The notes beneath the pieces are model-generated. The model saw only the letters and a list, made by a program, of their open reading frames with translations. It was not told the DNA's origin and did no database searches. Positions 12,852 through 30,331 of a DNA stretch of 59,943 nt are shown one piece after another; positions within the stretch are counted from its first letter, which is position 1, and each line of letters opens with the position of its first letter. Location of the stretch: the sequence record SRR31156797_608. One strand, 5' to 3'. A program made the position numbers and the translations under genes.

Positions 12852-12909
12852 CTAACTTAAAATGCACAATTTTTGCGGTTCAAAACTAATTAAAATCTTT
12901 TATTCTATT

Positions 12910-14028
12910 ATGCTTCAAATAAAGAAGATTTCAGTATTACTCTTAATAATAGTCTTTATTGGCTGTTGTTCAAATATTTTTGCTTCTAAAACTGAGCGAA
13001 AATATGTTGTTGTATTAGATGCTGGTCATGGAGGTAAAGACAGTGGCGCGCGTGGAAGTATTTCCTGGGAAAAAGATATAGTTTTAGAAGTAACCAAACA
13101 GGTTGGAGAGTATTTAAACAAGCATTTACCAAACGTTAAGGTCATATATACAAGGAATGATGATACATTTATTAAACTCTATGAAAGAGCAAATATTGCT
13201 AACGAAAATGAAGCTGATTTATTTGTATCGATTCATGCCAATGCATCGCCAAGTAAAAATTCCCGAGGTACAGAAACGTTTGTCATGGGTTTACATAAAA
13301 CCGATGGAAACCTTGCAGTAGCTCAAAAAGAAAACTCTGTGGTGGCACTTGAGGAAGATTATACTGAGCAATATGAAGGGTATGATCCTCATAGTCCGGA
13401 ATCTTATATAATTTTTTCTTTGATGACCAATGCTCATTTAGACCAAAGTTTAAAAGCTGCAGAATTAGTGCAAACAGAATTTAGAGAAAGGGCCAGAAGA
13501 AAAGATAGAGGAGTAAAGCAAGCAGGTTTTTTGGTGTTGTGGAAAACTACCATGCCTAGCATTTTGATTGAATTAGGATTTATTTCAAATAGGCACGAAG
13601 AAACATATTTAAACTCGGACCAGGGTAAAGATTATCTTGCATCGGCTATTTTTAGGGCCATTAGAAGCTATTTTGAAGATTTAGAGGCTAATGAAGCTGA
13701 AGATGTGGAATATATCGAAGAAAAGGGCTCTAATGAGCCTGTGGTTACTAATAAGCCTGATAGTGAGGAGATTGTTTTCAAAGTACAGCTTACGGCTTCA
13801 AGCAATGAAGCCAATTTGAATAAAACACCCTTTAGCGAAGTAGAAGGAGATATTGAAGTTCAAAAAATAGGAAAGTTTTATAAGTATTATTTAGGAAATG
13901 CTAAAAGTTATGAAGAAGCAAAAGCATTGCAAAACAAATGTCGTGACTTATTTCCAGACTCCTTCATAGTTGCCTTTCAGGGGACAAATCCATTGTCATT
14001 GCAAAAAGCCATCGATAAAACAAAATAA
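12910..14028 (+). CDS. N-acetylmuramoyl-L-alanine amidase (Amidase_3) with C-terminal SPOR-like domain
   Basis: LDAGHGGKD, SIHAN and ILIELGFISN motifs; start at 12910 gives a clean signal peptide (alternative 12862). Confidence 0.92.
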   Translation: MLQIKKISVLLLIIVFIGCCSNIFASKTERKYVVVLDAGHGGKDSGARGSISWEKDIVLEVTKQVGEYLNKHLPNVKVIYTRNDDTFIKLYERANIANENEADLFVSIHANASPSKNSRGTETFVMGLHKTDGNLAVAQKENSVVALEEDYTEQYEGYDPHSPESYIIFSLMTNAHLDQSLKAAELVQTEFRERARRKDRGVKQAGFLVLWKTTMPSILIELGFISNRHEETYLNSDQGKDYLASAIFRAIRSYFEDLEANEAEDVEYIEEKGSNEPVVTNKPDSEEIVFKVQLTASSNEANLNKTPFSEVEGDIEVQKIGKFYKYYLGNAKSYEEAKALQNKCRDLFPDSFIVAFQGTNPLSLQKAIDKTK

Positions 14029-14101
14029 CAACCTTGGTTATTCTCATCGTTAATTGCAAGTTATTTTTTAACTTGCAATCGATCAATAATTATTCTTTCA
14101 T

Positions 14102-15340
14102 ATGAATAAATACAAATACATATTAATTGGTTTCCTGGTTTCAATAACTGTTGGAATATTTATTTTCGGTTTAAACTATTTAAAAGGTAAAAATTATTTT
14201 ATTGAAGAAGATAAATATTATGTAGTATATGATAGGATAGAAGGCCTTACAAATGCAAGTCCTGTTTTATTGAATGGATTTAATATTGGTCAGGTTAGAG
14301 AGATAAAATTTCATGACATAAGAAAAGGTAACCTTATTGTAACATTTGTTGTTAAAAAAGATATACACATTCCTAAGAATTCTATTGCACGCATTTTTAG
14401 TCAGGATTTAATGGGTACTAAAGCCATAGACTTAATTTATTCTGAAGAGAAAGATTATGCTACACCTGGTGATACTTTAATTCCTGAAACTGAAGAAAGT
14501 TTAAAAGAGCAGGTGAGTATTGAAATGCTTCCGCTAAAAAACAAAGCTGAGGATTTGCTGAAGGAGATGGAAAATGCCATTAAGATTATTAATCAAATTT
14601 TTAATGAACAAACTCAACGTAATCTTCAACAGGGTATTGAGCAGTTCAATCAGATTGCGAAGCACTTGCGATCCAGCACTGCAAGTGTGGATAGTTTATT
14701 AATTAAAGAAAAGTATCGTATTCACAGATTGATTGCAAATTTGGAATCAATTACAGCCAATTTTAAAGGTAATAATGAAAATGTTACGGAACTTATCGAG
14801 AACTTAAAAATGCTCACTGATTCATTAAATCAGGTTGATTTCAAAGGTACCGCATCTAAAGTTGATAGTTCTTTATATGCATTTAATGAGATTTTAAAAC
14901 AAATTGAAAATGAAGAAGGTACATTGGGGCAATTAATTTACGATGACTCTTTATATAATACATTAAACAGAAGTACTGATTATATAGGCAATTTAGCTCA
15001 GGATCTTCGCGTCAATCCAAAACGATATTTGCATTTTTCAGTTTTTGATTTGGGCCGAACCATGTATGTACTCGATCAGGATAAAATGAAAAAACAAGCT
15101 GATAAGCGAGAAGGTATTTATTATGTATTGCTTGCAGAAAGTGATAATCCAATTCCGGTAGAGTCTTTTAGTAAAATTGAGAATGTAGAGCAGCGTGTTT
15201 ACAACGAAAAATACCTTTATACTGTTGGGGGCTATTATAAAAAACGTAAAGCTGAGAAGTTTTATAATAAAGTGCGCAGGAACTATCCCGAAGCAAGATT
15301 AGTCTATTTTAATAAAGGTCAATATTTAACTATAGAATAA
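14102..15340 (+). CDS. MlaD/MCE family lipid-transport protein with extended C-terminus
   Basis: N-terminal TM anchor, GL..ASPVLLNGFNIGQV and DLMG motifs, helical region, NPKRYLHFSVF. Confidence 0.88.
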   Translation: MNKYKYILIGFLVSITVGIFIFGLNYLKGKNYFIEEDKYYVVYDRIEGLTNASPVLLNGFNIGQVREIKFHDIRKGNLIVTFVVKKDIHIPKNSIARIFSQDLMGTKAIDLIYSEEKDYATPGDTLIPETEESLKEQVSIEMLPLKNKAEDLLKEMENAIKIINQIFNEQTQRNLQQGIEQFNQIAKHLRSSTASVDSLLIKEKYRIHRLIANLESITANFKGNNENVTELIENLKMLTDSLNQVDFKGTASKVDSSLYAFNEILKQIENEEGTLGQLIYDDSLYNTLNRSTDYIGNLAQDLRVNPKRYLHFSVFDLGRTMYVLDQDKMKKQADKREGIYYVLLAESDNPIPVESFSKIENVEQRVYNEKYLYTVGGYYKKRKAEKFYNKVRRNYPEARLVYFNKGQYLTIE

Positions 15341-15496
15341 TTTTATCATAATCCTGAAATTTGCAAGGTAATTTTCCATTAACAATTATTTAACGTTTTC
15401 GTAATACGATTAAAATACAGGCCTTTAAATTCCATGTTTGCGTAACATTCTGATTGTCAGTTTTTTATAAAAATATTTTTTTTTAGGTTTTTAAAG

Positions 15497-15505
15497 TGTT
15501 GATAA
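15497..15505 (-). promoter_or_regulatory. Possible DnaA box upstream of dnaA (TTATCAACA)
   Basis: One mismatch to TTATCCACA, 130 bp upstream of dnaA; single copy. Confidence 0.4.
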
Positions 15506-15634
15506 TAAAAATGATATCGTAAATTTTAAAAATGCAAGCGATATTTTATTTTTTTTTAAACTTTTTTTTCACCAACTTAGACTTCGCAAAAATAAAAATC
15601 AAGAAGATTATAAATTGTTAGGAATTAGGTTGCT

Positions 15635-17059
15635 ATGGATCACAAACTAGCGTGGGATCAGTGTCTCTCAGTAATTAAGGATAACATACCTGATAGAAGT
15701 TTCCGAACTTGGTTTACACCAATTAGGCCAATAAAACTTGAAGAAGGTGTTTTGACAATTGAAGTTCCAACCTCATTTTTTTATGAGTATTTGGAAGAAC
15801 ATTTTATCGATATATTACGAAAGACGCTGAACAAGGTAATAGGAGATGGAGCTAAACTTGAGTATAGTATTATTGTACACAACAGTACACATAATTCAAA
15901 ACCTTACACATTAAAAGTACCAACTCAAAACAAAAGTGACTTGACTAATAGACCTGTATCCATTCCTATGGGGCAAAATCAACAGGTTTCTATTAAAAAC
16001 CCTTTTGTAATACCAGGTATCCAAAAACTTAATATTGATCCACAACTTAATAGTGATTATAGTTTCGATAACTTTATTGAAGGCGAATGCAATAGATTAG
16101 CTCGTTCTGCCGGGTTTGCTATTGCTCAAAATCCCGGTAAAACGGCATTTAATCCTCTATTTATATACGGTGCATCAGGACTTGGAAAAACTCATTTGGC
16201 GCACGCCATTGGCATTGAGGTTAAAGAACGTTTCCCTGAAAAAACAGTATTATATGTAAGTGCCAATAAATTTGAAAGACAATATGCTGATGCAGCCAGA
16301 AATAATGAGCGTAATGATTTTGTTCATTTTTATCAAATGATTGATGTACTTATTATCGATGATGTGCAGCATTTAGCCGCTAAACCAGGTACACAAGATG
16401 TATTTTTCCATATTTTTAATCATTTACATCAATCTGGTAAGCAATTGATTTTAACCTCAGATAAACCGCCAGTTGAGCTTGAGGGTCTGGAGCAAAGGTT
16501 ATTATCACGTTTTAAATGGGGGTTGAGTGCTGATTTGCAAGTGCCTGATTTTGATACACGTAAAGCGATTTTGCAAAAAATGGCCTACAAAGATGGTATT
16601 GAGCTTGGTGATGATATTGTAAATTATGTGGCCAGTAATATAAATACTAACGTTCGAGAAATTGAAGGTGCATTGGTTTCATTACTAGCACAGTCAACAC
16701 TGAATAAAAAAGAAATAACTATTGAATTGGCCAAAAGTCTAATAGATAAGTTAGTTTCTAACACCAAAAAAGAAATTACACTGGATCTTATACAACAAAC
16801 TGTGTCAAGTTATTTCAATATGCCTATTGATCAGTTAAATAGTAAGACTCGTAAAAGAGAAATTGTTCAGGCTCGTCAAATTGCCATGTACTTTGCAAAA
16901 CATAAAACTAAATCATCTTTATCTACTATAGGTGCACGCATTGGTGGTAAAGATCATGCTACTGTGCTTCATGCTTGCAAAACTGTTAAAAATCTTTTAG
17001 ATACTGACAAAAGATTTAAAGTATACGTAGATGACATAGAAAAAATGTTAGAAGGATAG
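15635..17059 (+). CDS. dnaA: Chromosomal replication initiator DnaA
   Basis: NPLFIYGASGLGKTHL, IDDVQ, RLLSRF, NVREIEGAL, ARQIAMY and KDHATVLHA motifs. Confidence 0.99.
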   Translation: MDHKLAWDQCLSVIKDNIPDRSFRTWFTPIRPIKLEEGVLTIEVPTSFFYEYLEEHFIDILRKTLNKVIGDGAKLEYSIIVHNSTHNSKPYTLKVPTQNKSDLTNRPVSIPMGQNQQVSIKNPFVIPGIQKLNIDPQLNSDYSFDNFIEGECNRLARSAGFAIAQNPGKTAFNPLFIYGASGLGKTHLAHAIGIEVKERFPEKTVLYVSANKFERQYADAARNNERNDFVHFYQMIDVLIIDDVQHLAAKPGTQDVFFHIFNHLHQSGKQLILTSDKPPVELEGLEQRLLSRFKWGLSADLQVPDFDTRKAILQKMAYKDGIELGDDIVNYVASNINTNVREIEGALVSLLAQSTLNKKEITIELAKSLIDKLVSNTKKEITLDLIQQTVSSYFNMPIDQLNSKTRKREIVQARQIAMYFAKHKTKSSLSTIGARIGGKDHATVLHACKTVKNLLDTDKRFKVYVDDIEKMLEG

Positions 17060-17082
17060 AGTTCAAATTATGATATTTAAAT

Positions 17083-17123
17083 AAGCTATCTGTAAGACTT
17101 TTATTTACTTGCAGGTAGCTTTT
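17083..17123 (+). terminator. Intrinsic terminator after dnaA
   Basis: AAGCTATCTGTAAG / CTTGCAGGTAGCTT stem (G-U pairs) followed by T residues. Confidence 0.65.
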
Positions 17124-17237
17124 CTGTTAAATCATGTCAACACTTTGGGATGATTAGTGTTTACGACAATGAATATTTGAATAAAATTTTGTAAAACTGA
17201 CATAAATCATCAATTTTGTACGATCAAAAAAAATAGA

Positions 17238-18005
17238 ATGGGAATAAAAATAAAGACACCAGAACAAATTGAGGGGATTAGAAAAAGTAGCCAACTGGCT
17301 GCTTCATGTTTAGACTTTATTGAACCTTACGTTAAACCAGGAGTTACCACTGAATATCTCGATGATCTTATTGAAAAACACATCCGTGAAAACGGCGCAA
17401 TACCAGCTCCATTGAATTATCATGGTTTTCCCAAAGCTACTTGTATTTCTCCAAATAGTGTAGTTTGCCATGGTATTCCAAGTAAAAAGACTATCCTGAA
17501 AGAAGGAGATATTATTAACATTGATGTTACTACTATATTAGACGGTTATTATGGTGACACCAGTCGCATGTTTGAAGTTGGTGATATAAGTGAAAAAGCA
17601 GCTAATTTAATTGACACAACAAAACATTGTTTGGACCTTGGTATTAAGCAAGTTAAGCCGGGTAATAGATTTGGAAATATTGGTTACGTTATTTCAAGAT
17701 ATGCACAAAGTAAGGGTTATAGCGTAGTATATGAGTTTTGTGGACATGGTGTTGGCTTGGAGTTTCATGAAGAGCCTCAGGTTGAGCATATTTCACGAAA
17801 AAACTCAGGCGCAACAATGAAACCCGGAATGATTTTTACCATCGAACCCATGATTAATATGGGAAAAGCAAAAGTTAAAGTTGATAAAAATGATGGTTGG
17901 ACAGCCACAACCATTGATAATGAGTTATCGGCTCAATTTGAACACACTGTGTTGGTTACAGAAGATGGTTATGAAGTATTGACAGATATTCACAATGAAT
18001 ACTAA
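17238..18005 (+). CDS. map: Type I methionine aminopeptidase
   Basis: VCHGIP, NIDVT, GDTSRMF, GHGVG..FHEEP, FTIEPMIN and AQFEHTV motifs. Confidence 0.97.
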   Translation: MGIKIKTPEQIEGIRKSSQLAASCLDFIEPYVKPGVTTEYLDDLIEKHIRENGAIPAPLNYHGFPKATCISPNSVVCHGIPSKKTILKEGDIINIDVTTILDGYYGDTSRMFEVGDISEKAANLIDTTKHCLDLGIKQVKPGNRFGNIGYVISRYAQSKGYSVVYEFCGHGVGLEFHEEPQVEHISRKNSGATMKPGMIFTIEPMINMGKAKVKVDKNDGWTATTIDNELSAQFEHTVLVTEDGYEVLTDIHNEY

Positions 18006-18035
18006 AATAGAACAATTAATTTAAAACATACTCGT

Positions 18036-18782
18036 ATGAAATTATTAGAAGGAAAAACAGCTATTGTTACTGGGGCATCAAGAGGTATTGGTCGTGCCAT
18101 TGCACTGCGTTTTGCTGAAAATGGAGCCAATGTGGCAGGTACAGACCTCAAATATGATGAGAATGCAGAAGCTCTTGAAAAAGAGATTGCTGCCATGGGC
18201 GTTAAATGTAAAATGTATGCTTCTGATGCAAGTAATTTCGAAGGTTGCCAAACATTAGCAGATGAAGTAGTAAAAGATTTCGGTCAAATTGATATTCTTA
18301 TCAATAATGCAGGTATTACTAAAGACAATCTTTTAATGAGAATGACTGAAGGCGATTGGGATGCAGTAATGAATATCAATCTTAAATCTGCATTTAATAT
18401 GACAAAAGCTGTACAGCGCACTATGCTTAAGCAGCGTAATGGTTCTATTGTAAACATGAGCTCTGTGGTAGGTGTATCCGGAAACGCTGGACAAGCTAAT
18501 TACAGCGCCAGTAAAGCTGGTATGATTGGGTTTACCAAATCAGTGGCAAAAGAGCTAGGGTCTCGTAATATCCGCGTGAATGCAATTGCACCTGGATTTA
18601 TTATTACTGAAATGACTGGTAAACTGCCTGAAGATGTAGTGAAAGGTTGGAGCGATCAAATTCCTTTGAAAAGAGGAGGAGAACCCACTGAGGTTGCTGA
18701 TGTAGCTATGTTCCTTTCTTCAGATTTATCTTCATACGTAAGCGGTCAGGTGATTAACGTATGTGGCGCAATGAATACATAA
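18036..18782 (+). CDS. fabG: 3-oxoacyl-ACP reductase
   Basis: TGASRGIG, NNAGITKD, NYSASKAG and NAIAPGFI motifs. Confidence 0.95.
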   Translation: MKLLEGKTAIVTGASRGIGRAIALRFAENGANVAGTDLKYDENAEALEKEIAAMGVKCKMYASDASNFEGCQTLADEVVKDFGQIDILINNAGITKDNLLMRMTEGDWDAVMNINLKSAFNMTKAVQRTMLKQRNGSIVNMSSVVGVSGNAGQANYSASKAGMIGFTKSVAKELGSRNIRVNAIAPGFIITEMTGKLPEDVVKGWSDQIPLKRGGEPTEVADVAMFLSSDLSSYVSGQVINVCGAMNT

Positions 18783-18804
18783 CTCAAATCATCTAATATT
18801 ATAC

Positions 18805-18833
18805 AATAACCGGCATACTCTGCCGGTTATTTT
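18805..18833 (+). terminator. Intrinsic terminator after fabG
   Basis: AATAACCGGCA-N5-TGCCGGTTATT followed by T residues. Confidence 0.8.
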
Positions 18834-18873
18834 GTATATTCACATTTCATTTTGCCAATTAGATCCATAGGCT

Positions 18874-20910
18874 ATGTATACATCAGGTGCATATTTAGTT
18901 TTAAGCATAATTCTTTCTTTACTCATTTCTTTTGTTTTAGCATATTTAGCATATAAAAGCAAAACATTTAAAACTTCATCTAAATTATTATTTGGACTTC
19001 GCTGGATTGCATTGACCCTGCTAATGCTCATTCTATTTAACCCGGGTATTAAAATCACCAAAATTACAGATCAGAAACCCTTGCTGTACTTCCTTGAGGA
19101 TAATACAAGTTCAATCAAGTATTTAACTGATTCAGCAGAATTAAATACGCTTAATAATAGCTTAAATAGTATAAAAATAGATTTGGAAACCTATTATGAC
19201 ATTGAAACCTTTTATTTTGATAATAGTGTATATGGTACTGTAGATGAGAGATATAAAGGTCCGGTAACTGACATTGGAAACACACTTAAAAAGATTTCCG
19301 AGTTAGATGATAAAACAGTAAATAAGGTTGTGTTGGTTAGTGATGGAAATTATAATCAGGGAGAAAATCCACTATTTTTAAGTGCTGGATTACCATACGA
19401 GCTCTATACAGTTTCAATAGGCGATACAATTTCAGAAAATTCATTTTACTTTAGAAACCTTTATCACAATATGGTTGGGTACACCAATGAGGAAATACCT
19501 ATAGAAGCCAATATAAGATATGAAAAACTGACTGAAGACACTGTAATTAATGTTGAAGTACTCTCTGATGATAAAGTCATTAAAACAGACAACATAAACC
19601 TTGATAGCAGGACAAGACGAACTAAATACAGTTCATATTTTAAGTATAATAAAATAGGGCTTAAAAAATTTACGATAAGAATTAAAGATGTTCCAACATC
19701 TGCCAGATCCTTTTATCTGGAAGTTAAAAAGCAAAAACAGAAAGTATTAGTTTTATATCATTCAGTACATCCTGATATAGGAGTTATAAGACGGGCACTT
19801 GACTTGAGCAATAGATTTGATCCTGTAATAGTACAAGCTAATCAATTTGACCAGGAAATATCTGATTTTAATTTAATTGTGTTTCATCAAATTCCTTCAG
19901 GTCAATTTGCAGAAGACCGATGGTTTGCCGAAGCAGTAACAGCTCAAATCCCTAAATGGGTAATATTAGGTCCAAAATCAGATATAAGTACTTTTAATCA
20001 AGGCCAGGATGCGTTGCAGCTAAACAATTTCAATGGTCAGTATGACGAAGCAGGGATATATCTTAATGACAATTTCAGCTGGTTTAAAAGTGAACTTAAT
20101 CAGGACTTCAATTCAGCATCATGGCCGCCTTTAACTGTTCCATTTGCTAACTATAAAGTAAAAAAGGGTGTAAGTCTTTTTGATCAATCATTGATGGGTA
20201 TTGAAACTGAACGTCCAGCCTGGTTATTTGTTGATCAACCCTACAGATATTCAATATTAACCGGAACAGGGCTATGGAAGTGGGGAATATATGATTACAG
20301 AATGAATGGTAACCACAATAAAATTCACGATTTAGTATATAAAACGGTTAGATATTTATCGCTAAACAAACCTAAAAAACGCCTTCAGCTGAATGTGGCA
20401 AAAGTCTATGAGTCCTCTCAATCTATTGAATTTGAGGCTATCTGGTATAATCAAAACTATGAAATTGATAATACTCTGCCTGGTAATATGGTTTTAATAG
20501 ATTCTACTAACAAAGAATTTGATTTTGCATTTATTCCTTCTGGAAACAAATATAAAATTCAAGCAGGATTATTATCTCCGGGTTTATATAAGTATAAAGC
20601 AAAAATAAGTTCCGAAAACGAGTTATTTTCAAATGAAGGTAGTTTTGTCGTAAGTGAAACGAATCTTGAGAAAAATGACTATAAGGCTAATATTCAATTA
20701 CTAAGAAAGCTTTCAGGATCGAAGAATTCGTTGTATTTTAAAGAGGTAGACAATCTAAGAGAAATGCTGAAACCAGATGAAAAACATCAAATAATCCAGA
20801 AAACAGACACTAAAATAGCAGATTTAATAGATGATAAACTGTTTTTGTTTCTGATTATCACGTTGTTTGCTTTAGAATGGACAATAAGAAAATATCGTGG
20901 ACAGTTATAA
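18874..20910 (+). CDS. Membrane-anchored protein with a degenerate vWA-like domain
   Basis: Two N-terminal TM helices, EDNTSS and VLVSDGNYN (MIDAS-like), C-terminal TM helix with EWTIRK. Confidence 0.65.
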   Translation: MYTSGAYLVLSIILSLLISFVLAYLAYKSKTFKTSSKLLFGLRWIALTLLMLILFNPGIKITKITDQKPLLYFLEDNTSSIKYLTDSAELNTLNNSLNSIKIDLETYYDIETFYFDNSVYGTVDERYKGPVTDIGNTLKKISELDDKTVNKVVLVSDGNYNQGENPLFLSAGLPYELYTVSIGDTISENSFYFRNLYHNMVGYTNEEIPIEANIRYEKLTEDTVINVEVLSDDKVIKTDNINLDSRTRRTKYSSYFKYNKIGLKKFTIRIKDVPTSARSFYLEVKKQKQKVLVLYHSVHPDIGVIRRALDLSNRFDPVIVQANQFDQEISDFNLIVFHQIPSGQFAEDRWFAEAVTAQIPKWVILGPKSDISTFNQGQDALQLNNFNGQYDEAGIYLNDNFSWFKSELNQDFNSASWPPLTVPFANYKVKKGVSLFDQSLMGIETERPAWLFVDQPYRYSILTGTGLWKWGIYDYRMNGNHNKIHDLVYKTVRYLSLNKPKKRLQLNVAKVYESSQSIEFEAIWYNQNYEIDNTLPGNMVLIDSTNKEFDFAFIPSGNKYKIQAGLLSPGLYKYKAKISSENELFSNEGSFVVSETNLEKNDYKANIQLLRKLSGSKNSLYFKEVDNLREMLKPDEKHQIIQKTDTKIADLIDDKLFLFLIITLFALEWTIRKYRGQL

Positions 20911-20982
20911 TATTAGTTATGCATTATTTTGCACTAATCTTTACTAAATTTGTTATAGTTAAAGGACATAAACTCATTTGAT

Positions 20983-21912
20983 ATGAATATTAAAAGTATA
21001 ATCTCAATTTTTGTTTTTGGTGTGATTTTTTCCAGTTGTACCTCAATTGGGAAAATACAGCTTGAAATATTACGTCCGCCAACGGATACGCTCAGCATTT
21101 CAAACCAAACAATTAATATTACCAATGGATATTTACAAAAAAATGTAAAGTCAAAAGATGATTTTGAAAATTTGGTTAAATATGATAAATATAGGTTAGA
21201 CAGCCTTGTAAGTGTTGAATCAATTATTGCGTTGAGACAAACACTAAATGAAGCAGGTATGGTCAAAACCGGGGTGGTTGATTCTACAGGACAAAAGAAA
21301 ATTGGTGGAACCTATTTAAGTATTGATAGTGTTAATATCAGATCGGAGGTTGAAACAGAACCGATGTACGTATACAGCCGCAATGCTTACTATGCTGCGG
21401 TGCGAGTTCCATATATAATAAAATGGAGAATTCAAGCTGCAAATGAAGATCCAGTATATCAGGTTTATCAAGATACATTGTGGGCTGAAGGATATGCTGC
21501 TGTCTTTGATAGATTGGCTGATTTAGTTAGCTTCGATAACGTTATTGAGTACATAATTTCCAAAACTACTTTCGATTTTGCCAGAAAAATATCGCCAGTT
21601 TGGGAAGAAACAACCAGATACTATATGAAATCAGGTAATAATGATTTCCTTAGAGCTTCATTTTTTATGGACAATAAGCAATATGATGAAGCAGCGCTAA
21701 TATGGCAGAAATATGCCGAAAATGATAAAGGTACCCTTGCTGCAAGTGCAAACCTAAACCTTGCTCTATATCATGAGTTGCAAGGTGATATAAATGAGGC
21801 CATTATATTTTGTGAAAAAGCAGTAGAACTAAAAAATGAACTGGCGAAAAGATATTTAAAGGTTTTAAAACAAAGACAATACGAAATCCAGAAAATTCTA
21901 AAAATTCAATAA
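20983..21912 (+). CDS. Lipoprotein with C-terminal TPR (DUF6340-like)
   Basis: Lipobox FSSC, ILRPP and ISPVWEETTRYY motifs, TPR-like C-terminus; TAAATTTG at 20945-20952. Confidence 0.65.
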   Translation: MNIKSIISIFVFGVIFSSCTSIGKIQLEILRPPTDTLSISNQTINITNGYLQKNVKSKDDFENLVKYDKYRLDSLVSVESIIALRQTLNEAGMVKTGVVDSTGQKKIGGTYLSIDSVNIRSEVETEPMYVYSRNAYYAAVRVPYIIKWRIQAANEDPVYQVYQDTLWAEGYAAVFDRLADLVSFDNVIEYIISKTTFDFARKISPVWEETTRYYMKSGNNDFLRASFFMDNKQYDEAALIWQKYAENDKGTLAASANLNLALYHELQGDINEAIIFCEKAVELKNELAKRYLKVLKQRQYEIQKILKIQ

Positions 21913-21915
21913 AAA

Positions 21916-23136
21916 ATGACCATTCTTTACATTATTATAGGTATTCTAGTGTTAGAATATGTTGTAGGAGAGATAGTTGATTACCTTAATTTAAAGCATG
22001 AGTTAAAGCCAATTGCACCTCTGTTGAGTCAAAAATTTACATTTTCGTTACGTAAAAAAATGCATCTTTACCATCTGGCCAATTATAAGACCAGCTTCTT
22101 TCATAGTCTTTTTTCGCTGATTGTAATTCTGGTACTTATACTCTCGTTTGGTTTTGGTGAGATTGATAATTTCATCAGGAAGTATTTTGAAAATGAAGTA
22201 GTTATTTCAATCGTTTTTTTTGCTGTTATTGGACTGGCTACAACTATATTATCCTTACCCTGGCAAATATTTAATGTGTTCTATATTGAAAATCGTTTTG
22301 GCTTCAATAGACAAACTGTGAAGTTGTTTTTTGTGGATAAACTTAAAGGAATTCTTCTTGCAGTAATAATTGGTGGAGTTTTAATAACAGCACTTACCTA
22401 TATCTACTACCAATTGCCGAATAGTTTTTGGTGGATTGCATGGATTATTTTTGCAACTTTTACACTCTTTATGACCATGTTATATTCAACGCTCATTGTA
22501 CCTTTATTCAATAAACAAAAACCATTAGAAGCAGGAAGTTTGCGCGATAAAATTGAGTCGGTAGCTAAAAAAGCTAATTTTAAGTTGGATAATATATTTG
22601 TTATAGATGGATCTAAAAGATCTTCTAAGAGTAATGCTTATTTTACAGGAATAGGACCTAAAAAACGAATTGTACTTTATGATACCTTAATTAAAGACCT
22701 TGAAGAAAATGAAATAGCTGCTGTTTTATCCCATGAAATTGGGCATTATAAAAAGAATCACATTTTAATAAACCTATTAACAGGTATACTTCAAACCGGT
22801 TTTATTCTATTCCTTTTTGATTTTATTGCCGGATATGATGCACTATACGAGGCAATTGGAGCCGTGAAACCATCATTTCATTTAGGGCTTTTGGTGTTTG
22901 GGTTTTTATTTACACCTATATCAATAATAATAGGTTTAATAATGAATTTATGGAGCAGGAAGGCTGAATATCAGGCAGATAATTTTGCCGCATCACTTGG
23001 ATTCAAAGACCAGCTTAAGTCATCATTGGTGAAACTAACAGATAAAAATCTATCGAATATTAATCCGCATCCACTATATGTCTTTATGCATTATAGTCAT
23101 CCACCACTTAATAAGAGGTTACAAAACCTGGATTAA
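21916..23136 (+). CDS. M48 family (Ste24-like) integral membrane zinc metallopeptidase
   Basis: DGSKRSSKSNAYF, HEIGH (HExxH), EYQAD and HYSHPPL motifs. Confidence 0.93.
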   Translation: MTILYIIIGILVLEYVVGEIVDYLNLKHELKPIAPLLSQKFTFSLRKKMHLYHLANYKTSFFHSLFSLIVILVLILSFGFGEIDNFIRKYFENEVVISIVFFAVIGLATTILSLPWQIFNVFYIENRFGFNRQTVKLFFVDKLKGILLAVIIGGVLITALTYIYYQLPNSFWWIAWIIFATFTLFMTMLYSTLIVPLFNKQKPLEAGSLRDKIESVAKKANFKLDNIFVIDGSKRSSKSNAYFTGIGPKKRIVLYDTLIKDLEENEIAAVLSHEIGHYKKNHILINLLTGILQTGFILFLFDFIAGYDALYEAIGAVKPSFHLGLLVFGFLFTPISIIIGLIMNLWSRKAEYQADNFAASLGFKDQLKSSLVKLTDKNLSNINPHPLYVFMHYSHPPLNKRLQNLD

Positions 23137-23327
23137 AATATTATTTTGGTATCTTAAATCAATAAACTTTTTTTCAAAAAAAAATATTTATAATTATCTT
23201 GTTGTTTATCAGAATTTTATGTGGTTTTCATTAATAAAATACGATAAAAATTATATTTTTTTGTCATAAACTTGTATGATGGTCGTCACATTACTGAAAC
23301 CAATTCATAGAAACTCAACTTGAAAGC

Positions 23328-23852
23328 ATGGATGCTGAAAAATTAAAAAAAGCTATTTACAAATATAAAGACCAAATGTATAGATTGGCTTTAAGTATAG
23401 TAAAGAACCAGCCAGAGGCAGAGGATGCATTACAAGATGTTTTTATCAAGTGTTGGGAAAATAGGCATAAAATATCCATAGATGAAAGCTTAAAAGCATA
23501 TTTAATGCAATCAGTAAGGAATAAATGCCTTGATATGATTAAAAAACAGAGTAGACAAAAAGAAACAGAAGCTATTGAAGATTATGAATATCAATATCAA
23601 AACGAACAAAATATAGACCAGGTAGAGCAATTAAAAATAGTTTATGAATTAATTGAAAGGCTACCAGAGAAAAATAGAACCATATTGGAATTGCGAGAAA
23701 AAGAAGATTTATCATTTGAGGAAATCTCAAAAATAACGCAAAACAGTGTAGAAAACGTAAGAACAATATTGAGTAGAACAAGAAAAAAGCTTAAAACTGA
23801 TTTAATGCAAATAGTAAACTTTGAAAGAAGTTCAATTTCAAACTTAAATTAG
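23328..23852 (+). CDS. ECF-family RNA polymerase sigma factor
   Basis: Region 2 AEDALQDVFIKCW; region 4 LSFEEISKI...VRTILSRTRKKL. Confidence 0.9.
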   Translation: MDAEKLKKAIYKYKDQMYRLALSIVKNQPEAEDALQDVFIKCWENRHKISIDESLKAYLMQSVRNKCLDMIKKQSRQKETEAIEDYEYQYQNEQNIDQVEQLKIVYELIERLPEKNRTILELREKEDLSFEEISKITQNSVENVRTILSRTRKKLKTDLMQIVNFERSSISNLN

Positions 23853-23858
23853 AAAACG

Positions 23859-24299
23859 ATGAAAAATAACGATAAGAATAAAAACCTATTAACCAATGAT
23901 CAAGCTGACTTTATTATAAGTAAAGCTTTGAAACAAGATAACGAAGTGCAGATGCCGGACGATCTGTTTGACAGGTTATGGGATAATGCACAGCAAAAAG
24001 AAACAAAACCCAGAACAATAAGAATGAAGTTTTATGCTGTTGCGGCCTCAATTGCCTTGCTGGTAACACTTACAGGAGTATGGTTTTATAATCAGTCGCA
24101 AATCCATATGCAAAAACAATACGAGCAAAGCACAATGGCATTAAACAAAGTATCAAAGTATTTAAACATAGGCTTGTCTAAATTGGAACACGTTGATCAA
24201 TACCAGGAGGCAGTACAACATTTACAAATACTAAAAAAGCCTGAAAGCAAAACGAAAAAACTAGAATACATTAATAAATTACCAATTGTAACCGAATAA
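23859..24299 (+). CDS. Putative single-pass anti-sigma factor
   Basis: Directly follows the ECF gene; YAVAASIALLV TM segment typical of Bacteroidota anti-sigma factors. Confidence 0.6.
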   Translation: MKNNDKNKNLLTNDQADFIISKALKQDNEVQMPDDLFDRLWDNAQQKETKPRTIRMKFYAVAASIALLVTLTGVWFYNQSQIHMQKQYEQSTMALNKVSKYLNIGLSKLEHVDQYQEAVQHLQILKKPESKTKKLEYINKLPIVTE

Positions 24300-24320
24300 T
24301 TAACTCTTAAATCTCATATT

Positions 24321-24833
24321 ATGAAAACTTTAGTGATTTTATTTACAGCAATATTAATGAGTGGCGTAAGCTTAGCACAAGATGTGAAAGATATATATAA
24401 TCGTCACCTCGGAGAAGGAAACTACACAAAAGTAGTAATTGGAAAAGGTCTATTTCAATGGGCAGCATCTATGGCCGATGAAAAAGATAAAGAAGCACAA
24501 GCGTTAAAGGATCTAACGGGAATTGAAATCTACAGTGCTGAAGATTATCAACAAAAAGAAAAATTACCAGCTTTGATGGCTGAAGTATGGAAACTATTTG
24601 ATAATGGTGACTATTTAGAATTCATGCGAGTAGAAGAAAAAAATGAACGCGTAGTTTTTTACTTTAAAAAAGCCAATAATCAGATTACTGATATGGTATT
24701 AGTTGCTGAAGAAGATGCTACGGTTATTAAAATAAGTGGAATTATTGACCCAAACACAATCTCAGGCATTTCAAAATCAATGAACATACAGGGAATGGAG
24801 AAATTAGAAGAAATTGATAAGCAGCAAAAATAA
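24321..24833 (+). CDS. DUF4252-like exported protein
   Basis: Signal peptide, LKDLTGIEIY, YLEFMRV and C-terminal MNIQGMEKL; usual partner of this ECF type. Confidence 0.75.
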   Translation: MKTLVILFTAILMSGVSLAQDVKDIYNRHLGEGNYTKVVIGKGLFQWAASMADEKDKEAQALKDLTGIEIYSAEDYQQKEKLPALMAEVWKLFDNGDYLEFMRVEEKNERVVFYFKKANNQITDMVLVAEEDATVIKISGIIDPNTISGISKSMNIQGMEKLEEIDKQQK

Positions 24834-24854
24834 GATTACCAATCACATTATATG

Positions 24855-24883
24855 AAGCCTGGATTTAGTTCCGGGCTTTTTTT
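24855..24883 (+). terminator. Intrinsic terminator
   Basis: AAGCCTGGA/TCCGGGCTT stem followed by a T tract. Confidence 0.8.
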
Positions 24884-25003
24884 GTAACAATGTTTTATAG
24901 AATAATAATTAAAAAATTGGTATTGTATATCTTTTTTCTTTAAATTTAAACCATTCATGGATAGTTGATATCTAATATCAGGTCGTACACTAATTAGTTT
25001 ATT

Positions 25004-26281
25004 ATGAGGGATATACTATTAATGCTTTGCTTTATATTTGCTTTTCAAATTGGAATCGCACAAGACAAAGATATTGATAAAATATACAATAAAGCCAGAA
25101 ATAAGTATGCTACAGGCCACTTTGAGCAGGCTAGAGATAATTACCTTCAACTAATAAAATTAAAACCCAATGATTTTGTATTTAATTATGAATTGGGCAT
25201 GTTACTTTTTTATGAATTAAATGACAAACCCGGCAGTATTCCATATTTTGAGACAGCTATTCAAGTAATGCAAGATACCGTGGCAGATGTATACAACTAC
25301 ATGGGGCAAGCCTATCAAAGTAACTTAGAATATGATAAAGCCATTGAATCATTTAATAAATATACGGCTATTCCACCAAAAGAAGGAGTGATTAGAGTGA
25401 GTGTAAAACGATATATCGACCAGTGTATACAGGAAAAACAAAAGCTTGAAGAGATACAGGCAAAAAGACAAAATAGCCAAAAAGATGGCACACAAGTGCT
25501 AAACCTGGGTCCAATTGTAAACTCTGAAAATGATGATCTTTCTCCAATACTATATAATGGCAAGCTATTATTTACATCAGCGCGCAAGTTCGATTATGTT
25601 TTTAACGAATACATGCGACATAGTTTTCTGACTATGTTTATTGAAGATCAATACATTAAGCCAGAACCGTTGAGCGAATCACCATATGATAAAGGAATGG
25701 TTGTAGACCCAAACTGGCATCAAGAAATAAGCTCAATAACCATTGATTTTGGGACGATTACTGTAATTTATGAAGAAGATATATGGATTATAACTAAAAA
25801 AGGGAAAAACTGGGCAGAACCGGTTCAAATGAGTCGCAAAATTAATAGATCAAGAGATAATGCTTACGCTTCGCTATCCGGAAAAGGCGATAGGATGATA
25901 TTTGTAATCTTTGATCGTAAAACGAAACAATATGACTTATACCAAACTGCAAAGAATGCAGAAGGAGAGTGGCGTGATCCTATTAAACTAAATAATCAAA
26001 TTAATACCTTAAGTAACGAACATTATCCATTTTTAAGTCCGGATGGTTATACATTATATTTTTCTTCAGATCGAGAAGGTGGAAAAGGAAAATATGATAT
26101 CTACAAATGTACATTGCAGGAAAATAATGAATGGAGTACCCCGGAACTATTAGATTCACCTATTAATTCAGCTGGAAATGATATCTCGTTCAAATATTAT
26201 AATGAAATTAACAAAGCTTACTTTTCTTCTGACCGAAAAGGAGGATTTGGAAAGTTTGATATCTACGAGGTAATCTATTAA
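25004..26281 (+). CDS. Exported TPR plus PD40 (WD40-like beta-propeller) repeat protein
   Basis: Signal peptide, N-terminal TPRs, PD40 motifs (PFLSPDGYTLYFSSDREGGKGKYDIY; AYFSSDRKGGFGKFDIY). Confidence 0.85.
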   Translation: MRDILLMLCFIFAFQIGIAQDKDIDKIYNKARNKYATGHFEQARDNYLQLIKLKPNDFVFNYELGMLLFYELNDKPGSIPYFETAIQVMQDTVADVYNYMGQAYQSNLEYDKAIESFNKYTAIPPKEGVIRVSVKRYIDQCIQEKQKLEEIQAKRQNSQKDGTQVLNLGPIVNSENDDLSPILYNGKLLFTSARKFDYVFNEYMRHSFLTMFIEDQYIKPEPLSESPYDKGMVVDPNWHQEISSITIDFGTITVIYEEDIWIITKKGKNWAEPVQMSRKINRSRDNAYASLSGKGDRMIFVIFDRKTKQYDLYQTAKNAEGEWRDPIKLNNQINTLSNEHYPFLSPDGYTLYFSSDREGGKGKYDIYKCTLQENNEWSTPELLDSPINSAGNDISFKYYNEINKAYFSSDRKGGFGKFDIYEVIY

Positions 26282-26930
26282 TAATTAAATCATTAGATTA
26301 ATATTCTGATTCTCTTTTTCTATTTCTAGAACATATTTAATTTGAACACTAAGCGAATTCTTAATGTGAGCATATTTAATAGATAAGGTGTTGTAATTGT
26401 TATTGATTTAGCTATGCTGTGCGCTATATAGGTTATAAACCCCTTAATCTGCTCATCATATATAGAAATCTAATGTAACGTGAGTTCGATGTAATTATGC
26501 GACACTCAATCGGGTAGTGGGTTATACTGTTATTGGCATACTAGGTTACTCTTTCCCAATTTGTATTACGGATTATTATAATGAGATAAATAGATGTCCT
26601 TAAAAATTAAAACTAGTATAAGAAGAGGGTTTACCCTTGATTAAGGATATTTACACTGATTTCAAGTGCAAAACATATGATGTTAAGTTAATTTAACAAA
26701 CATATAATTAACTCATTTTCATAACATTAAATTTATTATATGAAGTGATATTTAAAGATTTAAATATGGAAGTCCTGCCATATTGACAAAACCTTGCTTT
26801 AATAAGATAAAACTGATTTTATAATACTGTATATCAGTTTGTTATGATGATTTAATAAATTTAAAGTTCACTATGTGAGATTACAGCTATAGCAAATAAA
26901 AACACTTAATTCTTATGGATTAATCTTTGA

Positions 26931-26980
26931 TTACAATTGTAAATTACATATATTTGTTTACAAATTAACAAATAGTTACA
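26931..26980 (+). promoter_or_regulatory. Promoter/operator array upstream of the XRE regulator
   Basis: Perfect palindrome TTACAATTGTAA (26931-26942), -7 element TATATTTG (26949-26956), ATTTGTTTACAAAT (26952-26965), further TTACA half-sites at 26944 and 26976. Confidence 0.6.
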
Positions 26981-26981
26981 A

Positions 26982-27434
26982 ATGTCAATTTCCGAAAGAA
27001 TTGTTTACATACAGCAACAAGAAGGTATTTCTGCAAGTAAATTTGCAGATTTACTAGGTGTTCAGAGATCTGGTCTATCACACATTTATAGTGGTCGAAA
27101 TAAACCAAGTATTGATTTCTTGCAAAAACTATCCATACAATTTCCACAATACAGGTTAGAATGGATTATTAATGGAATTGAGCCTATACTATACGTAGAT
27201 AAAGCCCCAGAAAAGGCACAGGAACCGGATTTATTTAATCAGATGGTATCTAATGAGGTTAGAAGTGAAAACAAAGCAGAATATGGGCTCAAATCCACTA
27301 CCAACAAGAATAAAAAACAGTTAGTTGATTTAGAATCTAATGATCAGGAAATACCCGAAAGGGAAATATTGAAAGTTATGTTGATATATTCTGATAACAC
27401 ATTTAAAGTTTTGGATCCTCAAAATCATAAATAA
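26982..27434 (+). CDS. XRE-family helix-turn-helix transcriptional regulator
   Basis: SASKFADLLGVQRSGLSHIYSGRNKPSIDFL...WIING; C-terminal KVMLIYSDNTF motif. Confidence 0.9.
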   Translation: MSISERIVYIQQQEGISASKFADLLGVQRSGLSHIYSGRNKPSIDFLQKLSIQFPQYRLEWIINGIEPILYVDKAPEKAQEPDLFNQMVSNEVRSENKAEYGLKSTTNKNKKQLVDLESNDQEIPEREILKVMLIYSDNTFKVLDPQNHK

Positions 27435-27438
27435 TTGT

Positions 27439-27472
27439 TACATTTGCCTAGAATTTAGATTTGTTTACAAAT
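27439..27472 (+). promoter_or_regulatory. pyrD promoter -7 element and operator-like palindrome
   Basis: TACATTTG (27439-27446) and ATTTGTTTACAAAT (27459-27472), identical to 26952-26965. Confidence 0.5.
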
Positions 27473-28484
27473 GTATAAGGCAATTATTCGACCACTTTTA
27501 TTTCAGTACGGACCTGAAAAGGCTCATAAAATCACATTTAATCTTCTTAAAACATTTCAAGCTATACCCGGTGGACTGGATTTGCTGTCTTTATTGACAC
27601 CCAATAACAATCAACCGGTTGAATTAATGGGTTTAAAGTTCAAAAATAAGATTGGTGTGGCAGCTGGATTAGATAAAAATGCTGAATTAATCAAAGTATG
27701 GAAAGCAATAGGTTTTGGCTATGCTGAAATTGGCACTATTACGCCTAAGGGCCAGCCAGGAAACCCAAAACCAAGGCTATATAGGCTCAAAAAAGACGAA
27801 GGATTAATCAATAGGATGGGATTTAACAATCATGGATTAGATTCTGCTGTTGAAAAGCTTAAAAAGCGTCCTTCTGATTACATTGTTGGAGGTAATTTAG
27901 GAAAAAATACCACTACTCCTAATGAAGAAGCCGTTCACGATTATATAACTGTTTTTGAAGGGTTATATGATTATGTAGATTACCTGGTTGTGAATGTGAG
28001 TTGTCCTAATATTTCGGATTTAAAAAAGCTACAAGATAAGGATGAGCTTAATAATATCTTAGGTGCATTAATGGAAAGTAGAAAAAATAGGGCGATTCAA
28101 AAGCCTGTACTTCTTAAGATTTCACCCGATTTGAATAATCATCAGCTAATAGATACGCTGCAATTAGTTTCTGATCATAGTTTAGAAGGTGTTATTGCTA
28201 CTAATACATCAGTTTCAAGAAATGATTTACTTACTGATAATGAGATTGTCAAATCAATGGGGAATGGCGGCTTAAGCGGTTTACCAATTGCGAAGCGAGC
28301 TACTGAGGTAATATCATTAGTTCGAAAAGAGATGGGATCTGATTTTCCCATAATTGGTGTGGGTGGTATTCATAGTGCAGATGAAGCCAAGAGAAAATTA
28401 GATGCTGGTGCAAATATGTTACAATTGTATACAGGCTTTATTTATCATGGAATAGGGTTAATAAAGGATAGTTTACATGTGTAA
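27471..28484 (+). CDS. pyrD: Quinone-dependent dihydroorotate dehydrogenase (class 2)
   Basis: AAGLDKN, QPGNPKPRL, INRMGFNN, VNVSCPN, KISPD and GGLSG motifs. Confidence 0.96.
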   Translation: MYKAIIRPLLFQYGPEKAHKITFNLLKTFQAIPGGLDLLSLLTPNNNQPVELMGLKFKNKIGVAAGLDKNAELIKVWKAIGFGYAEIGTITPKGQPGNPKPRLYRLKKDEGLINRMGFNNHGLDSAVEKLKKRPSDYIVGGNLGKNTTTPNEEAVHDYITVFEGLYDYVDYLVVNVSCPNISDLKKLQDKDELNNILGALMESRKNRAIQKPVLLKISPDLNNHQLIDTLQLVSDHSLEGVIATNTSVSRNDLLTDNEIVKSMGNGGLSGLPIAKRATEVISLVRKEMGSDFPIIGVGGIHSADEAKRKLDAGANMLQLYTGFIYHGIGLIKDSLHV

Positions 28485-28544
28485 CCTTTAGTTTTATTAA
28501 ATTATTGTATATTTATTGCTTCAAAATTTATAAATGAAAATGTC

Positions 28545-29717
28545 ATGCTAAATATTGCTCTATTTGGACCTCCGGGAGCTGGTAAAGGAACTCAATCAGC
28601 CCGATTAGTAGAAAAGTACAATCTGACTTATATATCAACCGGAGATATTCTCCGAGAAGAAATTAAAGCCGGTACTGTGCTTGGAATGAAGGCTAAAGAT
28701 GTTATTGAGAAAGGTGGTTTAGCCTCTGATGAGATTATTGTGCAAATTATTGAGGCTAAGATTAAGAGGAATCCTTATGCGAATGGTTTCTTATTTGATG
28801 GGTTCCCCAGAACCATTGTGCAGGCTTATATTTTAGAGGGTATGTTATTTAAGATGAATACGCGCCTGACATGCATGTTGAGCTTAGAAGTACCTAAAGA
28901 TGAGCTTGTTAGTAGGTTGAGAGAACGTGGGAAAAGTTCAGGTAGAGCTGATGATACTGAAGATGTTATTCAGAATAGATTACGCGAATATGATGAGAAA
29001 ACCTTTCCAGTAGCAAAATTCTACAAGGATAAAGGTATCTATAATGGAATTGATGGGATTGGTTCGTTAGATGATGTATTTGTTAGGTTAGATGCTGCTG
29101 TACAAAAATCATTAGAGGACAGATGGGTTAACCTCATTCTTTTTGGTTATCCTGGTGCAGGTAAAGGTACACAGGCTAAAATGTTGGCCGATAGATATAA
29201 TTTGCATTATATATCCACAGGTAAAATATTAAGACAAGAAATTAAGGATAATACTGATATTGGAAAGCTTGCAAAACCATATATGGAAAAGGGAGCTATT
29301 GTGCCTGATGAATATGCCATTAAACTCATTGAGCGTAAGATGGAGGAGCATAATAAGGCAAACGGCTTTATATTTAAGGGTTTTCCACGCACGATGGTTC
29401 AGGCTTATATTTTAGATGGAATGTTACATAAAGTTGGTTCAACTATTACTTCAGCTTTTGAACTTAAAATAAGTGCTACAGAGGCAGTTAAACGATTAGT
29501 TGATCGAAGTAAAACAGACCAACGTCGGCCATATGATATGGAAATTGAAACCATCATTTCTCGCTTAGAGGAATATGAAAAACGTACTTTAATGGCCAAA
29601 GATTTCTATGATAAAAAGCATTTATTGCATGTTGTAGATGGTCAGGGAACTGAAGAGGAAGTATTAAAGAGAATAACTGATAAAATTGATAATACAGTAT
29701 TAAGAAATCCAAGATAA
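28545..29717 (+). CDS. adk: Adenylate kinase with two tandem ADK domains
   Basis: Two P-loops (GPPGAGKGT and GYPGAGKGT), each followed by ISTG.ILR and F.GFPRT. Confidence 0.9.
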   Translation: MLNIALFGPPGAGKGTQSARLVEKYNLTYISTGDILREEIKAGTVLGMKAKDVIEKGGLASDEIIVQIIEAKIKRNPYANGFLFDGFPRTIVQAYILEGMLFKMNTRLTCMLSLEVPKDELVSRLRERGKSSGRADDTEDVIQNRLREYDEKTFPVAKFYKDKGIYNGIDGIGSLDDVFVRLDAAVQKSLEDRWVNLILFGYPGAGKGTQAKMLADRYNLHYISTGKILRQEIKDNTDIGKLAKPYMEKGAIVPDEYAIKLIERKMEEHNKANGFIFKGFPRTMVQAYILDGMLHKVGSTITSAFELKISATEAVKRLVDRSKTDQRRPYDMEIETIISRLEEYEKRTLMAKDFYDKKHLLHVVDGQGTEEEVLKRITDKIDNTVLRNPR

Positions 29718-29740
29718 ATATTAATCGTTGTTAATTCGAG

Positions 29741-29777
29741 AATCCTGACATATTCCGGTAATTTGTCAGGGTTTTTT
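29741..29777 (+). terminator. Intrinsic terminator after adk
   Basis: AATCCTGACA...TGTCAGGGTT followed by a T tract. Confidence 0.8.
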
Positions 29778-29817
29778 ATTTAAATTCAGTTTGCAAATAT
29801 GTTAAATAGCTATAATT

Positions 29818-30249
29818 ATGGGAATTGGATTTTCATTTACATGCAAAGCTTGCAATTATAATAAAGAGATTCAAATTGGAGTTGGACTATTTGTAAATAA
29901 GATGGGACTCAAGGAATACTTAGAATTTAACAATCAATTCAAAACTATACATAAACAAACTAAGGCAAAATTATCCAGGTTTTTATTGGATAAAGACAAC
30001 CGGATAATTGATCCTGAATATCGAGCTTACCAGTGTGATAATTGCCATAAGATTTTTAATAAGATTTATGTAGAAATATTTGAAGAAATAGATGGAAAAA
30101 AAAATCAAATCTACCATAGTGAGTTTAAATGTTGGAAATGCAATTCAAAACTCAGAGAATTAAATGTGGAGGACATGAGTCAAACTTATTGTCCTAAATG
30201 CAGTAAAAATACATTTGAAAAAGATCATGTAATTATTCAATGGGATTAA
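29818..30249 (+). CDS. Hypothetical Zn-ribbon protein (four CxxC motifs)
   Basis: CKAC, CDNC, CWKC and CPKC; ends IIQWD. Confidence 0.75.
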   Translation: MGIGFSFTCKACNYNKEIQIGVGLFVNKMGLKEYLEFNNQFKTIHKQTKAKLSRFLLDKDNRIIDPEYRAYQCDNCHKIFNKIYVEIFEEIDGKKNQIYHSEFKCWKCNSKLRELNVEDMSQTYCPKCSKNTFEKDHVIIQWD

Positions 30250-30267
30250 TTGCGAATTCTAGCTCAA

Positions 30268-30295
30268 TTGTCCTATAATTTATATTATGTTAAAT
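30268..30295 (+). other. dif: dif site (XerC/XerD chromosome dimer resolution site)
   Basis: TTGTCCTATAA-TTTATA-TTATGTTAAAT: 11-6-11 layout, right arm identical to the E. coli XerD arm, left arm ends in the conserved ATAA; intergenic between convergent genes. Confidence 0.85.
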
Positions 30296-30307
30296 AGATG
30301 TATGGGA

Positions 30308-30331
30308 AATAAAGGGAGATTACTCTCCCTT
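30308..30331 (-). terminator. Terminator for the gyrA-TPR transcript
   Basis: AAGGGAGA-TTAC-TCTCCCTT hairpin with an A-rich flank on the left. Confidence 0.6.

Follow-up and report, generated by a model that had tools for sequence, protein, structure and literature searches.

A putative dif site beside gyrA and 13-15 kb from dnaA in a clade of Bacteroidota

Kono et al. (2011) predicted dif in 19 of 19 Bacteroidetes genomes, and the passages of that paper concerned with these sites place dif against GC skew and name no neighbouring genes, the word dnaA being absent from the main text (PMC3025954). Chromosome dimer resolution in Bacteroidetes was described as unstudied in a paper that noted the presence of XerC and XerD homologues in the group (PMC3091885), and our literature search found no demonstration of XerC/D acting on such a site in any Bacteroidota. 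As regards the origin, oriC was reported to lie commonly far from dnaA in Bacteroidetes, with reference to DoriC (PMC4755523); that dnaA is often unlinked from oriC in Bacteroidota, as the first-pass annotation of the DNA studied here stated, is thus already published. A tight linkage of dnaA to dif is striking and, as far as we have found, undescribed: a literature search that covered sources other than subscription journals returned no statement of dnaA-dif or gyrA-dif linkage. Here, we describe a 28-bp sequence in a DNA stretch of 59,943 nucleotides (sequence record SRR31156797_608, referred to as the window). With a probability of roughly 0.9, it is the chromosome dif that marks the replication terminus, located in a gyrA-TPR-dif module and with dnaA 13-15 kb away on the other side. 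The evidence consists of identity with a published dif, of single copy number, terminus-type skew and rRNA gene orientation in relatives, and of conserved synteny.

The 28-bp site and its surroundings in the window

The site is composed of the following elements.

30268..30295 (+): dif site, 28 bp, XerC-type arm, 6-bp spacer and XerD-type arm
30268-30278 (+): XerC-type arm of dif, TTGTCCTATAA
30279-30284 (+): dif spacer, 6 bp, TTTATA
30285-30295 (+): XerD-type arm of dif, TTATGTTAAAT

The two 11-bp arms are imperfectly inverted and stand 6 bp apart, with the inner halves ATAA and TTAT inverted around TTTATA. The first-pass annotation had proposed a dif at 30268..30295 whose XerD arm is identical to that of Escherichia coli; the sequence reads as it stated, and TTATGTTAAAT is also the XerD arm in the E. 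coli K-12 row of the published predictions (PMC3025954, supplementary file 2). The whole site is identical, at 28 of 28 positions, to the dif predicted for Robiginitalea biformata HTCC2501 in the same file, which was placed 0.067 degrees off the GC-skew shift point of its genome, and it is 1-4 bases off the predicted dif of other Flavobacteria, Cytophagia and Sphingobacteria (PMC3025954). Within these predictions, the core TATAATTTATATTATGTTAAAT is common to the window, Flavobacteriaceae bacterium 3519-10, Dyadobacter, Amoebophilus and Chitinophaga, whereas the predicted dif of Cytophaga has one spacer base unlike the 22-nt core of the window, and those of Gramella and two Flavobacterium species differ from the window by one base in the XerD arm (PMC3025954). 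Because of the matches to these predictions, that of R. biformata above all, and the identity of the XerD arm with that of E. coli, the 28-mer can be identified, as a sequence, as the canonical dif of non-Bacteroides Bacteroidota. It is single in the window even with up to three mismatches tolerated, was matched in 0 of 100 dinucleotide-preserving shuffles, and was still the single site in a looser scan that allowed at most two mismatches in the XerD arm and at most five in the XerC arm.

The genes and other features around the site are as follows.

12862..30249 (+): co-oriented gene block, 17 kb, running into dif
15635-17059 (+): dnaA, full length, TIGR00362 at 502 bits (cut-off 343.9)
29818..30249 (+): last gene of the left block, 143 aa, without an NCBIfam family, stop codon 18 nt before dif
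30312..30331 (+): strong terminator-like hairpin with an 8-bp stem and a 4-nt loop, lying after dif and ahead of the TPR stop codon
30343-31548 (-): TPR-repeat protein gene (TPR families), a conserved spacer separating gyrA from dif
31615-34149 (-): gyrA (DNA gyrase subunit A), transcribed toward dif, NF004043 at 1210 bits against a cut-off of 902

The dif site is intergenic, in a 93-bp convergent gap (30250-30342), and the 1-kb region around it holds three terminator-like matches versus 0.2 expected from shuffles. The 17-kb block on its left contains amiC-like and mlaD-like genes, dnaA, map, fabG, an M48 protease gene, an ECF sigma gene, an OmpA-like gene, pyrD and a double adk, among others; all of its ORFs of at least 100 aa (12862-30249) are on the + strand, except for one 110-aa ORF that is overlapped by + strand ORFs. 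On the right, the TPR gene and gyrA converge on dif. The gene orientation claimed earlier, a + strand block pointing at the site from the left and gyrA-TPR from the right, was therefore reproduced apart from that one overlapped ORF, and the distances given there as about 13 kb to dnaA and 1.3 kb to gyrA are accurate by the NCBIfam-named genes: dif is 13.2 kb past the end of dnaA and 1.32 kb past the 3' end of gyrA.

Some other ORFs of the window deserve mention. The ORF just upstream of dif at 28545-29717 (+), of 390 aa, is the fused double adk, with two full tandem adenylate-kinase domains at residues 3-188 and about 195-390 (NF001381, 405 bits). The ORFs at 10232-12817 (-), of 861 aa, and at 18874-20910 (+), of 678 aa, had no NCBIfam match at E <= 1e-5; of 80 distant loci, 17 have a counterpart of the latter beside fabG and the M48 gene, at 22-29% identity. 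A 775-aa ORF at 37479-39806 (-), likewise without an NCBIfam family, lies in a region of strongly negative AT skew (-0.32), and its staggered, overlapping matches to one stretch of contig C3 of a related genome, G310, suggest that it may be built of internal repeats.

Raw GC skew in the window tracks the coding strand, which bears out the earlier remark that spot checks of G and C counts were not decisive. Because of this dependence, third-codon-position (GC3) skew was evaluated per gene strand, so that the replication effect could be split from the coding-strand effect. Left of dif, + strand GC3 skew was +0.10 in - strand genes and +0.13 in + strand genes, which gives a replication component of about +0.115; the + strand was G-rich throughout 1-30 kb, and no skew switch was seen either around dnaA or where gene orientation diverges, near 12.8 kb. 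Right of dif, the values were -0.08 in - strand genes and +0.07 in + strand genes, that is, a component of about -0.01 and not about -0.11, and between 46 and 60 kb the corrected skew was weakly positive again. The corrected skew thus collapses at dif without reversing within 30 kb, and the cumulative raw skew is still rising right of dif, so that the cumulative maximum predicted for 30.3 kb by the first-pass annotation is absent. This non-reversing right flank is the main weakness of the case for a terminus that can be made from the window alone.

Replication polarity in a relative with a complete chromosome

An order-level sample of 301 genomes was searched with the DnaA of the window. The best match was found in G265 (88% identical; the next, 72%), which has a complete chromosome of 4,812,386 bp with a single dnaA match at 1-1419 of its contig C1. 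The window is colinear with this chromosome from 4,796,673 across the coordinate origin to about 39,900, where gyrA occupies 18,005-20,518 (-). Nucleotide identity over the aligned blocks is 66-77%, and for the site of the window, uniqueness and chromosome-wide skew are known from relatives only. The exact 21-nt dif core occurs once in G265, at 16,694; two other matches have three mismatches each, and a control pattern likewise gave two matches.

Chromosome-wide polarity in G265 was assessed in forty 20-kb samples as + strand GC3 skew over genes of both strands. The skew was positive at 2.52-4.81 Mb and 1-20 kb, and negative at 20-80 kb, 340-440 kb and 540 kb-2.48 Mb, which places a terminus-type switch at dif and an origin-type switch at about 2.476-2.483 Mb (cumulative minimum at about 2.476-2.478 Mb). 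The point opposite dif is 2.42 Mb, close to the origin-type switch at about 2.48 Mb, and hence, the two replichores are nearly equal. An anomaly was seen at 100-320 kb, right of dif, where the skew has the wrong sign and five 20-kb samples had no + strand ORF of at least 150 aa.

The same stretch of G265 (C1, about 100,000-320,000, some 85 kb right of dif) contains at least 11 repeated tyrosine-recombinase gene pairs, all on the - strand. In the single unit inspected, two genes for DnaG-type primases (CHC2 zinc finger and Toprim) were found. The block, about 200 kb long, resembles a set of small integrative elements repeated in tandem in one orientation. Another repeat, of about 95 copies in one orientation in one of the stretches sampled from the 0.02-2.46 Mb replichore, dominates the strand-skewed 8-mers and is probably a large CRISPR array.

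A first ranking of polar words (8-mers) in G265 was swamped by the repeat of about 95 copies. When skew was required in both replichores of G265, the check for KOPS-like polar words yielded no strong word, and the weakly strand-skewed words derived from this genome showed no flip at dif in the right flank of the window.

The 16S genes of G265, at 1.437 Mb (-), 2.531 Mb (+) and 3.740 Mb (+), are co-directional with forks that start at 2.48 Mb and meet at dif, so that three of three rRNA operons point toward dif; in five complete genomes, 16S genes are transcribed toward dif in nine of nine cases (7 separate loci). If the site were an origin, every rRNA operon would therefore be head-on to replication. 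Two candidate Xer genes are present in G265: one scores 345 bits as XerD, which is over the cut-off of that family, and the other, at 249 bits, is Xer-like.

An origin-linked dnaA arrangement was not seen in the window: dnaA is flanked by an MlaD/MCE-like gene upstream and by map (methionine aminopeptidase) downstream, with no dnaN beside it; DnaA boxes are not enriched (20 found versus 19.9 expected); and an origin-type skew switch is absent. Some 2.4 Mb separates the dnaA locus of G265 from the origin-type switch of that chromosome. No cluster of E. coli-type DnaA boxes was found at 2.46-2.54 Mb, and perfect boxes across the chromosome (91 versus 40 for the control) formed no tight intergenic cluster, a pair at 2.416-2.418 Mb being inside genes. 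A 509-bp divergent gap with 79% AT at 2,482,839-2,483,347, where gene orientation diverges, is a candidate origin only. In all five complete genomes inspected (G265, G278, G281, G111 and G183), gyrB is 4-21% of genome length from dif, and therefore cannot serve as an origin marker here; dnaA, gyrA and gyrB are all in the terminus half of these five chromosomes.

These data bear on the possibility that the polarity is inverted, in which case replication would start where dnaA, gyrA and the Xer site lie and would end, in G265, at the switch near 2.48 Mb. Such an arrangement would be familiar, since dnaA, gyrA and gyrB are near oriC in many other bacteria and all three, even gyrB, are on the dif side here; the lack of a clear DnaA-box cluster at the 2.48-Mb switch of G265 would also be accommodated. 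However, the leading strand is G-rich in bacteria, and the G-rich strands converge on dif. The inverted polarity would also put nine of nine 16S genes head-on to replication, and around dnaA there is neither a skew switch nor DnaA-box enrichment. Published data point the same way: Prevotella intermedia has a DnaA-box-rich oriC at a skew switch away from dnaA (PMC4755523), and 33-46.5% of the chromosome separates gyrA from the DoriC origin in six Bacteroidetes (PMC8359277, Table 1). We consider an inverted polarity hardly credible. The reading of the site as the terminus, and with it the earlier proposal that the initiator gene sits at the terminus, is supported by the skew and rRNA orientation of G265, by the single-copy core in relatives and by a sharp skew reversal in the more distant genome G263 described below; it follows that dnaA would double in copy number only at the end of replication. 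A terminus role of the site in the genome of the window itself is inferred by extension from these relatives.

Conservation in the clade and in wider samples

A clade set was defined as six genomes with a DnaA at least 78% identical to that of the window. The perfect 21-nt dif core occurs exactly once in each of the six, and the distances between dnaA and dif are as follows.

G265: 15.3 kb, on a single contig
G306: 13.9 kb, on a single contig
G308: 14.9 kb, on a single contig
G310 (DnaA 96% identical): 13.3 kb, two contigs abutting at window position ~21,870
G307: about 14.2 kb, two contigs with ends that fit the same layout
G309: too fragmented for a distance

The 17-kb block (12862..30249) is colinear with G265, G306, G308, G310 and G307. 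Comparison of dnaA-dif distance across relatives, which had been proposed as a check, thus gave 13-15 kb in five clade genomes, three of them on single contigs and two on abutting contigs.

The 28-mer might have been a chance or relic Xer site, such as a scar or attachment site of an Xer-integrating element, with the working dif elsewhere. The AT-rich 11-nt XerD arm alone would occur by chance about 0.3 times per 60-kb window (arithmetic from base composition), and microvirus proviruses of Bacteroidetes are flanked by dif-like sites (PMC3091885). Against this, all 28 positions equal a published dif and such a site is single in the window; neither provirus genes nor a second dif-like repeat flank 30268-30295; the core is single-copy in G265 and in five of five other clade genomes; and it occupies a conserved syntenic place, and the skew switch in G265 and G263. 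With the 28/28 match, single copy, synteny and skew switch taken together, a chance or relic site is refuted for practical purposes, and we give it very little weight.

It could also be argued that dnaA and dif owe their proximity to an assembly artefact, or to a single recent rearrangement peculiar to this genome and without wider meaning. The flat right-flank skew of the window does hint at a recent rearrangement beside dif, and among distant relatives of the M48-protease gene (80 loci, 45-53% identical), neither dnaA nor a dif-like site was found within 10 kb, although these loci are too distant to be of direct use. On the other hand, three independent assemblies, including a finished chromosome, show the same order and spacing on a single contig, two more fit this layout, and the wider samples described below repeatedly place dnaA on the terminus side. 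An artefact or a one-off event is scarcely tenable in view of these data.

On the gyrA side, the arrangement extends well beyond the clade. Both gyrA and dif were located in 92 genomes of the order sample among the matches listed. In 71 of these 92, the 3' end of gyrA is followed by dif at a distance of 1.2-5.5 kb, and in 64 of them, the distance is 1.2-1.65 kb, which equals the length of one gene; gyrA and dif have the same relative orientation in 70 of these 71 genomes. In the remaining listed genomes, the two are elsewhere on the same contig (5 genomes) or on different contigs (16 genomes). With respect to the M48 gene, the module of G004 is on the other side and its dif is reversed, and a small inversion carrying gyrA-TPR-dif as a unit would explain this layout. 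gyrA-TPR-dif is, then, a fixed module that is common in this Bacteroidota order. The gyrA-origin distances published for six Bacteroidetes agree with gyrA on the terminus side, and the passages that report them do not describe a dif beside gyrA (PMC8359277).

The dif core, with at most one mismatch, was present in 160 of the 301 genomes of the order sample, in one copy in all but two, and the control pattern matched in 5 genomes. One genome, G204, is the sole member of the sample with three core matches (contigs C15 and C19), each with one mismatch and all on the - strand; two of the three have the same spacer variant. The extra cores might reflect the integration of an element at dif, or additional replicons in G204.

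For 114 genomes of the order sample, the matches listed include dnaA as well as dif. The two are on the same contig in 25, and the 89 pairs on different contigs are uninformative in fragmented assemblies. Among the listed same-contig pairs, 22 of 25 are at most 300 kb apart, i.e., at most 7.4% of genome length, a figure biased toward short distances because pairs on short contigs must be close. In the 10 listed genomes with a contig of at least 1 Mb, the distances are 0.3, 1.3, 1.6, 2.4, 2.5, 6.9, 6.9, 17.8, 20.1 and 21.6% of genome length, where 50% is the maximum possible and two of the ten values assume a circular contig. In G263, whose DnaA is 53% identical to that of the window, dnaA is 5.4 kb from dif; in a local comparison on its 405-kb contig, skew reversed sharply at dif, from values of +0.10 to +0.21 on the left to -0.18 and -0.23 on the right. 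In G281, where 67 kb separates dnaA from dif, a flip of raw skew and of gene orientation marks dif, although more weakly than in G265 and G263, and the origin-type switch is diffuse, between 1.6 and 2.7 Mb.

A sample of Flavobacteriales gave a similar result: the core was found once in 81 of 141 genomes, with 0 control matches, and of the 80 genomes in which dnaA and dif were both located, 29 have them on the same contig, at a median of 12.8% and a maximum of 29.9% of genome length. Eight small Flavobacteriales genomes have dnaA 25-39 kb from dif. When terminus side is defined as a distance of at most 25% of genome length, dnaA is on the terminus side in 25 of 25 listed same-contig pairs of the order sample and in 27 of 29 of Flavobacteriales, counts that are not independent events because the sampled genomes are related to each other. 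Terminus-side dnaA is a tendency in two Bacteroidota orders, of which the clade of the window represents an extreme, syntenically fixed form.

Gene dosage, practical consequences and comparison with known systems

At the dif site, the tyrosine recombinases XerC and XerD, activated by FtsK at the division septum, would resolve chromosome dimers, and dnaA, about half a chromosome from the origin, would be among the last genes to be replicated. Initiation would then double the origins, and the dnaA genes would double only when the forks meet. DnaA synthesis per origin would be halved through the replication period and would recover only at termination; the layout itself might in this way curb re-initiation until the previous round is complete. 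To our knowledge, the E. coli regulators SeqA and Hda are not described in Bacteroidota. The gyrA-TPR-dif module may be another part of such a terminus-timed gene set. Initiator dosage tied to the completion of replication, which the first-pass annotation proposed as a possible help in timing initiation, is plausible, and a neutral explanation is at least as likely. Rearrangements symmetric about the origin-terminus axis have been reported (PMC5850607), and the position of dnaA relative to dif most likely persists via such axis-symmetric rearrangements, which preserve the distance of a gene from the terminus. Since they do so for any gene, the persistence of the position alone is no proof of selection; that selection, over and above inheritance, keeps dnaA beside dif in Bacteroidota seems to us rather unlikely.

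These findings have practical consequences. In this clade, dnaA marks the terminus side and not the origin, and the same tendency is seen in the two Bacteroidota orders. Finished genomes are often numbered from dnaA; the G265 chromosome starts at dnaA, and the start of the Lutibacter profundi genome was set at dnaA on purpose (PMC5219744). In the GRiD growth estimate, coverage at dnaA is expected to equal that of the origin and coverage at dif that of the terminus (PMC6251912), and a dnaA/dif check of this type would mislead for these bacteria. The single-copy 21-nt core offers a simple terminus marker for many Bacteroidota draft genomes. A dnaA gene that is replicated last may also be regarded as a natural experiment on initiator gene dosage versus initiation timing.

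Among described sites, the dif of E. coli is a useful reference. The site of the window resembles it in its length of 28 bp and its 11+6+11 layout; it is intergenic in the window, and single-copy and at the skew switch in relatives. The XerC-side arms are different, GGTGCGCATAA in E. coli versus TTGTCCTATAA in the window. With respect to the XerC/XerD/FtsK system of E. coli, an XerD orthologue is present in G265, and by analogy, recombination of the window site by XerC/D is predicted. In E. coli, dnaA adjoins oriC, not dif. P. intermedia OMA14 has a dnaA that is likewise off the origin, about 0.78 Mb from oriC on a 2.28-Mb chromosome, in passages that do not mention dif (PMC4755523), whereas dnaA in the window and its relatives is 13-15 kb from dif.
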